This document shows positions 31,137 to 57,587 of a stretch of DNA of 64,000 bases, in pieces (the stretch's first letter is position 1; every line of letters starts with the position of its first letter). The stretch spans positions 33,766 to 97,765 of the forward strand of contig JAFCGA010000001.1 of assembly GCA_017608345.1 (NCBI GenBank), written 5' to 3'. The notes beneath the pieces are model-generated. The model was not told the DNA's origin, made no database searches, and saw only the letters and a list, made by a program, of their open reading frames with translations. The DNA comes from Candidatus Pacearchaeota archaeon. Lineage in GTDB: Archaea > Nanobdellota > Nanobdellia > UBA10117 > JAFCGA01. The translations under genes and the position numbers were made by a program.

Positions 31137-31547
31137 TTATCTCACCTCAGTCCCGCGGGCCGGAGTTGCACCAGCAGCCTCTCGGTCTACGGCCGAGCGC
31201 TCTTCTAACTGCTCCAACCGTTTCTTATTTCCGAGCGAAGCGAGCAAGACGCCTTTCTTTTGGCATCTTAGCTTTTCTTTCGCGAAAGAAAAGGCAGATT
31301 GAGCTACCGCGGGAAGAATTAATTCACCAGTATGAGTTAGAGAAATTAGCTTACTATCGCCGAAGCTGATTAGTCTCTTATTTCTGAGCTGGCGAAGATT
31401 ATGCCAGCCAGTTGATTTAGGTAAGTTTAGAGAAGCGACAAATTGTGATGCAGTTAGTAAGTCATTATCTGCGATTGCGAATAAAAGCTTACGCTGAAGA
31501 TCAGGTATATTATTAGAAATTAATTCGCAGAGGATACGGATGATCAC
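31137..31547 (-). CDS. winged-helix (HTH) protein ORF whose C-terminal 58 codons run through tRNA-Tyr
   Basis: The first 78 aa (…LTASQFVASLNLPKSTGWHNLRQLRNKRLISFGDSKLISLTHTGEL) look like a wHTH. There is no in-frame stop before 31137. Confidence 0.4.
   Translation of the reverse strand: MIIRILCELISNNIPDLQRKLLFAIADNDLLTASQFVASLNLPKSTGWHNLRQLRNKRLISFGDSKLISLTHTGELILPAVAQSAFSFAKEKLRCQKKGVLLASLGNKKRLEQLEERSAVDREAAGATPARGTEVR
31151..31313 (-). tRNA. tRNA-Tyr(GUA) with an insert of about 87 nt in the D-loop
   Basis: The minus strand folds as CCCGCGG TA GCTC AATC[insert]GAGC G CTCGG CCGTAGA CCGAG AGGCT GCTGG TGCAACT CCGGC CCGCGGG A. The archaeal Tyr identity pair C1:G72 is present. Position 33 reads C rather than U. 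Confidence 0.75.
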
Positions 31548-34426: not shown

Positions 34427-34728
34427 TGGACCGGCCGGGATTTTCTGAAGGACAAATAGACCAAAGTATTTTGGTTTTACCAACTTCAGGGAGGTTGGTA
34501 CACCTTGGTTGGCTATATTTGAGTTGAAGGAACTTCAACTCCAGCCAGACAATGTGCTAGGGGGTCTTGCCCTTACTTTGAACCCGGGGCCTTCTACGTG
34601 CGAGGCAGACGCTCTACCGCTTCAGCAGCGTTTTCTTATTTTCCGAGCGCAAGCGAGAAAGAATTTTTCTTTTTCGCCAACGTTTTTCTTTTGTTAAAAG
34701 AAAAAGGCTGTGGCTGAGCTACCGGCCC
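34427..34728 (-). tRNA. tRNA-Ala(CGC), 302 nt, with a D-loop insert (about 90 nt) and a T-loop insert (about 136 nt)
   Basis: The minus strand folds as GGGCCGG TA GCTC AGCCA[34621-34710]GCGGTA GAGC G TCTGC CTCGCAC GTAGA AGGCC CCGGG TTCAAA[34441-34576]T CCCGG CCGGTCC A. G3:U70 is present, and the gene is 76 nt after removing the inserts. Confidence 0.75.
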
Positions 34729-34832
34729 ACTACTTATTCGCAGTCACTAACTATTTTATGTAAGGGATATTATAAAGATTATGTATCGCTAGAAATCTTC
34801 GGACTTCTGGAATTACAAATCAAATATTAGCA

Positions 34833-57241: not shown

Positions 57242-57587
57242 GGGCCGGTAGTTCAGCCAGCGGATCCCTTGCTCTCCAGACCGGAACAAGTTCCGGTTGG
57301 CCACGCGGAATTTCATTCCGCTTGGTGCAAAGAGAAAGGTCTACGCATCACCCCAAAGAGAAGCGTATTCCTTCGCTCCTTCGGAGCTCAAAAATAAAGA
57401 GATTTGCCTGAAACGGTAGAACGCTACATTGGCAGAGCCTTTTTCTCTTTCCAGAAAGAGAAAAACGTTCGCGAAAAAGAGAAAGCGAACATGGGTTTCA
57501 GACTTGTAGAGGCCCCGAGTTCAAATAGCCTTTCTTTCCTGAATGAAAGAACGAATTTCAGAGGCTAGGAAAATCTCGGCCGGTCCA
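57242..57587 (+). tRNA. tRNA-Ala(GGC), 346 nt, with three inserts: D-loop (about 153 nt), canonical 37/38 (69 nt) and T-loop (about 48 nt)
   Basis: Folds as GGGCCGG TA GTTC AGCC..[insert]..GGTA GAAC G CTACA TTGGCA[57435-57503]T TGTAG AGGCC CCGAG TTCAAA[about 57526-57573]T CTCGG CCGGTCC A. G3:U70 is present, and the gene is 76 nt after removing the inserts. Confidence 0.75.

Follow-up and report, generated by a model that had tools for sequence, protein, structure and literature searches.

Multiple-intron tRNA genes are reportedly a feature of the Thermoproteales, for which Sugahara (2007/2008) and Fujishima (2010) are said to have described "large-scale intron transposition". The tRNA genes of those organisms share several properties with the gene and the genome described here: introns with bulge-helix-bulge (BHB) or HBh' motifs at non-canonical sites that include 59/60 and the D-loop, up to three introns per gene in a tRNA gene set most of which is interrupted, and near-identical introns in unrelated tRNAs at different positions. 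However, the Thermoproteales are Crenarchaeota, and their EndA is an (alpha-beta)2 enzyme with a Crenarchaea-specific loop, whereas our locus belongs to a DPANN archaeon with one alpha-type EndA gene. The introns of our locus also differ in being long (92 and 136 nt) and built of recurring modules, among which is a Y/R/mirror-R core. In the Thermoproteales, the occurrence of near-identical introns in different tRNAs is called intron transposition (PMC4033280, PMC4090602). Both 59/60 and the D-loop are known non-canonical intron positions, and disrupted tRNA genes have been described in DPANN (PMC4090602, PMC5829648).

The pre-tRNA-Cys(GCA) of ARMAN-2 (Ca. Micrarchaeum), also a DPANN archaeon, has a T-loop intron at 59/60 that uses the T stem as its outer helix, as does our locus (PMC3239211; assay in PMC5829648). 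The ARMAN-2 EndA, however, is an epsilon2 enzyme of three units that has a specificity loop of its own (PMC3239211), whereas the EndA encoded here is a single N+C unit of 243 aa. Moreover, the T-loop intron of our locus has both bulges and an inner helix, and is therefore nearer to a full hBHBh' motif than to hBH. With a known relaxed (HBh') D-loop intron in a two-intron tRNA, our D-loop intron shares the motif type; here, however, the intron follows position 17 and is much longer and modular, and the D-loop is the commonest class of intron site (24 of 36 genes). In another intron-rich tRNA set, as in ours, most genes are interrupted, D-arm introns are missed by annotators and the sites are BHB-compatible, but in our genome copying between tRNA genes is evident (the D-loop introns of Ala(CGC) and Ser(GGA), with 70/94 positions identical).

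We analyzed one locus of this kind. It is very probably a functional, single-copy tRNA-Ala(CGC) gene of a DPANN (Nanobdellati) archaeon, with two protein-spliced introns that would be removed by EndA and RtcB and with CCA added to the product. Its D-loop intron would come from a copied family, while its T-loop intron would be a lineage-specific singleton.

Exon structure and splice junctions

The gene occupies positions 34427-34728 (minus strand, 302 nt) of the window, by which we mean the whole stretch of 64,000 nucleotides that was analyzed. An earlier note had read these coordinates as a tRNA-Ala(CGC) with one insert in the D-loop and another in the T-loop, and this reading holds. In the raw sequence of 34427-34728, no tRNA is reported by ARAGORN (with and without -i) or by Rfam (gathering, E up to 10). 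Once both inserts are taken out, three exons of 17, 43 and 14 nt join into a 74-nt cloverleaf, which ARAGORN calls as tRNA-Ala(cgc). The features of the locus, in the order in which they are read on the minus strand, are as follows:

34752-34759, minus strand: putative archaeal TATA box ATAAAATA, read from the sequence, at -31 to -24 from G1
34712-34728, minus strand: exon 1 (17 nt), GGGCCGGUAGCUCAGCC, comprising the 5' strands of the acceptor and D stems, U8 and A9 between them, and D-loop A14-C17; belongs to the spliced tRNA that ARAGORN accepts
34620-34711, minus strand: D-loop intron (92 nt), after position 17 (17/17a)
34577-34619, minus strand: exon 2 (43 nt), CGGUAGAGCGUCUGCCUCGCACGUAGAAGGCCCCGGGUUCAAA, running from the remainder of the D-arm through the anticodon arm (CGC), the variable loop and the T-stem 5' strand to A59
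34441-34576, minus strand: T-loop intron (136 nt), at 59/60, with an 8-bp closing helix AAGGGCAA/UUGUCCUU around three hairpins
34427-34440, minus strand: exon 3 (14 nt), UCCCGGCCGGUCCA, with U60, the T-stem 3' strand and the acceptor 3' strand with U70 and A73

The spliced tRNA has seven perfect acceptor pairs (GGGCCGG/CCGGUCC). The identity features of tRNA-Ala are present, namely G3:U70 within the acceptor stem, the A73 discriminator and the anticodon CGC (NGC class), as are the conserved cloverleaf residues U8, A14, G18G19, U33 and the T-loop UUCRAnU; the T-arm is GUUCAAAUC (also written GGGUUCAAAUCCC). Because exon 3 is followed by CUA, CCA is not encoded in the gene. The note's sum of 302 = 76 + 90 + 136 needs correction on this account: the exons make up 74 nt (17 + 43 + 14), and the D-loop insert has 92 nt rather than 90, while the T-loop insert has the length and coordinates that the note gave. 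Upstream, the TATA-like box has a counterpart in the tRNA-Ala(GGC) gene (TTATAAAA, at -33 to -26). There is no oligo-T terminator 3' of the Ala(CGC) gene.

It might seem that such a gene is a dead relic, destroyed by two repeat-element insertions, from which no tRNA is made. Standard tRNA finders do miss it, tRNA-Ala(UGC) could cover GCG, and the inverted ends of the T-loop insert, together with its A-rich flanks, might be taken for an element and its short target duplication. However, all exon stems are perfect, with compensatory differences from tRNA-Ala(GGC), and a TATA-like box stands at the expected distance. In addition, interruptions of the same kind, with the same bulge consensus, occur in at least 33 of 36 tRNA genes, some of them single-copy and essential, and a relic is very unlikely in our view. 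The compensatory differences (C11-G24 versus U11-A24, and G-C versus A-U in the T stem) indicate that both Ala genes are under selection. A rough count over the long open frames of all six frames puts GCG at about 15% of Ala codons; since tRNA-Ala(UGC) could read this codon by wobble, the Ala(CGC) gene need not be essential.

We regard it as barely conceivable that the inserts are self-splicing group I or group II introns, or that they host a known small RNA, e.g., a C/D-box guide. Such elements exist in archaea, and Haloferax tRNA-Trp is an archaeal example of an intron-borne C/D RNA. Both group I introns and intron-borne C/D RNAs have been reported from archaea (PMC6125680). However, no Rfam family is found in 34427-34728 with E up to 10, and inserts of 92 and 136 nt are too short for group I or group II introns. 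A C/D-box reading of the CUGA near the 3' end of the D-loop intron was also rejected: this CUGA is the central-helix strand of the BHB, and neither insert has a RUGAUGA C box. A split or permuted tRNA is ruled out, given that all exons are collinear on one strand. To judge from its spliced product, the locus is a genuine tRNA-Ala(CGC) gene with two apparently protein-spliced introns, at 17/17a and 59/60, an arrangement of known kind.

Splice sites were assigned by a BHB rule, in which exon positions -6 to -3 pair with intron positions -6 to -3 before the 3' splice site, and each 3-nt bulge is cut between its second and third bases. The same geometry is given in PMC4090602. As a self-check, the canonical 37/38 intron of tRNA-Ala(GGC) was the top match to the rule (H 4/4, h' 5/5, h 5/5). 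At the D junction of Ala(CGC), exon UCAG, bulge CC^A (the caret marks the splice site) and intron CAGC face intron GCUG and CUGA and bulge AG^C, so that both H and h' have 4/4 pairs. The D-loop insert is 92 nt long in the register that fits the rule, and would be 93 nt long with a D-loop of 8 nt. The outer helix h of this junction is weak (2/3, not contiguous), and the central helix takes U12 and C13 from the D stem; because of these two features, we describe the D junction as HBh'-like. At the T junction, h is the 5-bp T stem, B2 is AA^U, H is UUC(A)/(A)GAA (3/4), B1 is AA^G and h' has 8 bp. An A.A mismatch in H enlarges the 5' bulge, and there is an asymmetric loop at the 5' site. Within the A-run at this junction, four registers yield an identical mature tRNA, but only 59/60 fits the motif. 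Both predicted Ala(CGC) junctions fit the archaeal BHB motif, although the strict hBHBh' form is imperfect in each.

The three hairpins that had been pointed out in the T-loop insert recur in its predicted fold, inside the 8-bp closing helix. This fold has a z-score of -4.95, and none of 200 shuffles folds as well. Searches for homologues of the T-loop intron gave only chance-level matches of 18-27 nt, both in its own genome (blastn-short, relaxed blastn and nhmmer) and, by BLAST, in 60 relatives as well as in each of the 38 remaining genomes of the order. The T-loop intron appears to be a lineage-specific, tightly folded singleton.

The D-loop intron and its relatives

The D-loop intron consists of A, the 5' strand of h' (CAGC), the Y/R/mirror-R module, a 3' unit, the complementary strand of h' (GCUG), the central-helix strand Hc (CUGA) and AG. 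The Y-tract/R-tract module that the note had seen in this insert was also recovered by our module scan. From its start, the intron reads A-CAGC-C, UUUUUCUUUU (Y), AAC, AAAAGAAAAA (R1), CGUUGGCG and AAAAAGAAAAA (R2). Its parts are as follows:

34696-34705, minus strand: Y tract UUUUUCUUUU, which pairs perfectly with R1 in the MFE fold; found in the module scan
34683-34692, minus strand: R1 tract AAAAGAAAAA, the Watson-Crick complement of Y
34664-34674, minus strand: R2 tract AAAAAGAAAAA, which mirrors R1 and follows the linker CGUUGGCG
34636-34657, minus strand: 3' unit CUCGCUUGCGCUCGGAAAAUAA (mini-hairpin plus UCGRAAAUAA), common to many introns of the genome, including the Ala(GGC) D-loop intron, in a flank listing and pairwise alignments
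34622-34629, minus strand: GCUGCUGA, made up of GCUG, the 3' strand of h', and CUGA, the central-helix strand Hc, whose partner is exon U12-G15

The closest relative of this intron is the D-loop intron of tRNA-Ser(GGA) (contig C12, 11321-11572). The two introns (92 and 94 nt, respectively) are collinear from the first to the last base and identical at 70 of 94 positions; their local alignment score is 45, compared with a mean of 8.6 and a maximum of 17 for shuffled sequences. The Ser(GGA) intron is inserted 8 nt into the D-loop, versus 4 nt in Ala(CGC), and its 3' tetrad is CAGA, which corresponds to exon UCUG, versus CUGA in Ala(CGC), which corresponds to exon UCAG. On these alignments, the pair shows what is expected of a transposed intron: similar introns occupy different tRNAs at different positions.

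Among the other alanine tRNA genes, tRNA-Ala(GGC) (57242-57587) has the same architecture as Ala(CGC) and also splices to a 74-nt tRNA. The spliced D-loop of both genes is AGCC^CGGUA. In Ala(GGC), the D junction consists of UCAG, CC^A and GCGG facing UUGC, CUGA and AA^C, and is identical to that of Ala(CGC) in site and register. An alternative register one base off (D:+3, 157 nt) scored equally in a looser pass; we prefer 17/17a on the strength of the bulge consensus across the genome and of homology to Ala(CGC). The T-loop intron of Ala(GGC) is at 59/60, as in Ala(CGC), and tRNA-Ala(UGC) (contig C2, 85684-85868) has only a 59/60 intron. The T-loop introns of these three Ala genes are mutually unrelated, and the D-loop introns of Ala(CGC) and Ala(GGC) are homologous only in the 3' unit (the small hairpin plus UCGRAAAUAA), with a local score of 12.

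In the 155-nt D-loop intron of Ala(GGC) (window 57259-57413), we observed a "twin hairpin" consisting of ACCGGAAC..GTTCCGGT and GCGGAAT..ATTCCGC. This element recurs at about nine other places in the genome with 92-98% identity, and appears to be nested in a Y/R/mirror-R element.

The earlier note had placed the D-loop insertions of Ala(CGC) and Ala(GGC) at points a few nucleotides apart, and had taken this difference as a sign of independent insertion. In the BHB register the site is the same, with the same UCAG/CUGA helix, and so the reason that was offered does not stand. The note had also proposed to align the two Ala genes, and had named identical insertion points together with homologous inserts as the outcome that would speak against it; the alignment gave the former, and the latter only for the 3' unit. 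Independent insertion itself can still be argued for on other grounds. Because family introns with the ending ...CUGA-AR are spliceable only next to an exon UCAG-NN, the same D site would be hit repeatedly, and we give nearly an even chance to independent gains in both genes at such a hot-spot. This site is occupied in three tRNAs whose D-arm reads GCUCAG (Ala(CGC), Ala(GGC) and Arg(UCU)), and the neighbouring +2 site (GCUC/GAGU) is occupied in three others. The closest copy, in Ser(GGA), has an Hc that differs by one base (CAGA) and matches exon UCUG. Furthermore, the Ala(CGC) genes of three relatives, from the same order or class, are intronless, which puts the gain of the introns in this lineage. 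However, the common 3' unit and the identical bulge register could reflect common descent. In addition, no polymorphic or empty-site alleles were found in the 38 other genomes of the order or in metagenome contigs, where an exact scan for exon 2, which was aimed at closer relatives as well, gave 0 matches.

The competing explanation is that one Ala gene passed its D-loop intron to the other, by gene conversion via the near-identical flanking exons, or that both genes inherited it, and that the interiors were later replaced by recombination with family members. This is a serious candidate, if one that falls somewhat short of an even chance. Apart from the 3' unit, the intron bodies are unrelated, and their local score of 12 compares poorly with the 45 reached with Ser(GGA). 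Also, Ala(UGC) has no D-loop intron, and the site with its UCAG/CUGA helix recurs in tRNA-Arg(UCU), which has an intron there. The identity matrix of the mature Ala tRNAs (86% versus 86-88%) does not show recent paralogy of Ala(CGC) and Ala(GGC). What speaks for copying or inheritance is the identical register and UCAG/CUGA helix, with flanking exons that differ by only one base each, along with the 3' unit common to both D-loop introns and the presence of 59/60 introns in both genes.

The Y/R/mirror-R module

A genome-wide scan for perfect Y/R1 hairpins with a purine tract downstream yielded 42 copies of the module, with 26 different R1 sequences. In 27 of these copies, R2 is a perfect mirror of R1 over at least 9 nt. 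Perfect direct repeats occur in only 6 of the 42 copies, and all 6 have symmetric tracts. As a control across copies, R2 was compared with the R1 of other copies, which gave a match of 9.4%, versus 64% with its own R1. The Ala(CGC) copy has 10/10 matches both for Y/R1 and for R2; however, because its tract is nearly symmetric, it is uninformative as to whether R2 is a mirror or a direct repeat of R1. Three-way covariation is instead shown by the homologues in Ser(GGA), in the anticodon intron of Ala(GGC) and at contig C1, 167072. Since a mirror copy cannot arise by template copying, the mirror relation must be selected.

All 17 module copies that lie inside the tRNA introns of our census (see below) are in sense orientation, which could simply be because the junction has to be spliceable. 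R2 forms the loop of a short stem in several subfamilies. In relatives across the order and the class, the module stands directly after D-loop or 59/60 junctions. We found no description of such a Y/R/mirror-R module in the literature searched.

Several further copies deserve mention as observations in their own right. A subfamily with the linker CTAGGCGTCC occurs at 12 loci outside census tRNA genes (e.g., C1:133262-133311, C1:243212-243258, C3:4289-4335 and C15:2564-2610), and has a long conserved 3' tail (a hairpin, GAAATA and ACGCTCACTCATCAGCTC). The closest copy of the module in the Ala(GGC) anticodon intron lies outside the window, at C1:167047-167118; it is preceded by CTGATGA, which is C-box-like, and we recognised no tRNA exon in its surroundings. 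In the genomes of two relatives, a degenerate duplicate of the first 13-15 nt of a tRNA gene, joined to a Y/R/mirror-R element, stands ahead of the complete gene. One of these is an intronless tRNA-Ala(CGC) (locus L013, relative G003:C49), in which GGGCCAGTTGCTCAG plus the element is followed by GGGCCAGTAGCTCAAT...; the other (locus L002, relative G010:C2, 1480-1620) has GCCTCAGTATCTC plus the element, followed by GCCTCGGTAGCTCAAG.... This layout of a partial tRNA copy and an element may be a footprint of intron arrival or loss. A further relative (locus L012, relative G002:C39, 1495-1760) has a tRNA-Arg(UCU) with a module-bearing D-loop intron and a second intron in the T-loop, from which it follows that the intron habit extends across the order.

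The core of the module shows three-way covariation that goes beyond ordinary base pairing. A speculative and, in our estimation, unlikely interpretation is that this core may fold as an intramolecular purine.purine-pyrimidine triple helix of about 10 triples, either in the RNA or in a displaced non-template DNA strand, and that it could help a mobile family of BHB introns to persist or spread. In antiparallel A.A-U and G.G-C triples, the third strand is the mirror of the hairpin's purine strand. The third tract of the module follows the same mirror rule as R.R-Y intramolecular DNA triplexes and the major-groove purine triples of the tRNA D-stem. According to in-vitro work, the purine motif is reportedly disfavoured by RNA strands, and for this reason the triplex is not our main claim. 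To our knowledge, no natural RNA has about 10 consecutive purine-motif triples. If the interpretation is true, the triple helix could clamp the intron ends for a loop-less alpha-type EndA, or could stabilise the excised circle.

Splicing enzymes and the intron load of the genome

The genome assembly comprises 1.05 Mb in 15 contigs, with 39% GC and 88% completeness. The nearest matches of its TyrRS are in MAGs labelled Nanobdellati, Iainarchaeum and Woesearchaeota, with about 58% identity. To take a census of its tRNA genes, we used a T-arm-anchored cloverleaf search that allows inserts in four loops, and assigned junctions by the BHB rule afterwards; some of the resulting junction and anticodon calls are ambiguous. 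This search gave 41 candidates, compared with 8 in the reversed genome under the same filter, and 36 of the 41 are ARAGORN-valid after splicing. At least 33 of these 36 genes are interrupted. The intron sites among the 36 genes are 24 in the D-loop, 15 in the anticodon loop and 17 in the T-loop (14 at 59/60), and the bulge consensus is NN^A...AA^N. Direct runs of ARAGORN and Rfam on the genome report only 15 tRNAs. In its genome, then, the Ala(CGC) gene is no oddity but a typical case. The census should be considered a lower bound, because several module copies adjoin exon-like sequence that it missed.

Such uncalled, exon-like 5' flanks of module copies are found at window positions 31252-31294 (minus strand; C1:65017-65059), at C14:53666-53713 (minus strand) and at C8:50-97 (minus strand). 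They read GGTAGCTCAATCTG^CC... and ...GCCAGTTCAAACAG^CC..., and probably represent more interrupted tRNA genes.

A single EndA is encoded (contig C6, 48847-49575; locus L021, 1057-1788). It has 243 aa, with one N-terminal and one catalytic domain (PF02778 and PF01974) and a Lys-rich N-terminal extension of about 65 aa; tblastn found no EndA paralogue in the genome, of which 88% is represented. Among proteins of solved structure, its best matches are the N. equitans alpha subunit and the M. jannaschii alpha4 enzyme; relative to the former, it is 6 residues short at one loop (between GIKPGGG and HSKW). With one gene and with no beta or fused second unit, this EndA appears to be of the alpha type, its alpha4 state being a prediction from a genome that is 88% complete. 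RtcB (531 bits) and an archaeal CCA enzyme are also encoded. As an additional observation, the single EndA must serve more than 55 introns, many of which have relaxed motifs.

With these enzymes, processing of the Ala(CGC) transcript could proceed as follows. A precursor of about 302 nt would be transcribed from the gene. In each central helix, four exon bases would pair with four bases near the 3' end of the intron (UCAG/CUGA at the D junction and UUCA/AGAA at the T junction), and the sole EndA would cut both splice sites in the flanking bulges. RtcB would then ligate the exons and would probably circularise the introns, after which the CCA enzyme would add the 3' end. The D-loop intron, in this scheme, would be a member of a modular intron family that is copied between tRNA genes.

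It is important to consider what counts against the view that the gene is spliced in this way. Relaxed motifs are cut efficiently only by (alpha-beta)2, epsilon2 or loop-bearing EndAs (PMC5829648), and here relaxed junction motifs would have to be cut by one alpha-type EndA that is shorter at one loop than the N. equitans alpha subunit. The D junction is without a good outer helix, and the T junction has the A.A mismatch and the asymmetric 5' loop. Moreover, Ala(UGC) may wobble on GCG, and the gene has no oligo-T terminator. Despite these caveats, a spliced tRNA-Ala(CGC) gene is the reading that we adopt, at the high probability expressed at the outset.

The D-loop introns of Ala(CGC) and Ser(GGA) constitute a clean, checkable case of a copied intron outside the Thermoproteales, in which the 3' tetrad is changed by the one base needed for the new exon. 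This copy bears on how archaeal tRNA introns arrive, a question that a recent Asgard survey left open. The tRNA intron load of the genome, among the heaviest seen (24 D-loop introns, and interruptions in at least 33 of 36 genes), in combination with one EndA of apparent alpha type, is a pairing that published enzymology for relaxed motifs does not predict. Finally, because standard annotators miss genes like Ala(CGC), the tRNA sets of DPANN genomes are under-called.
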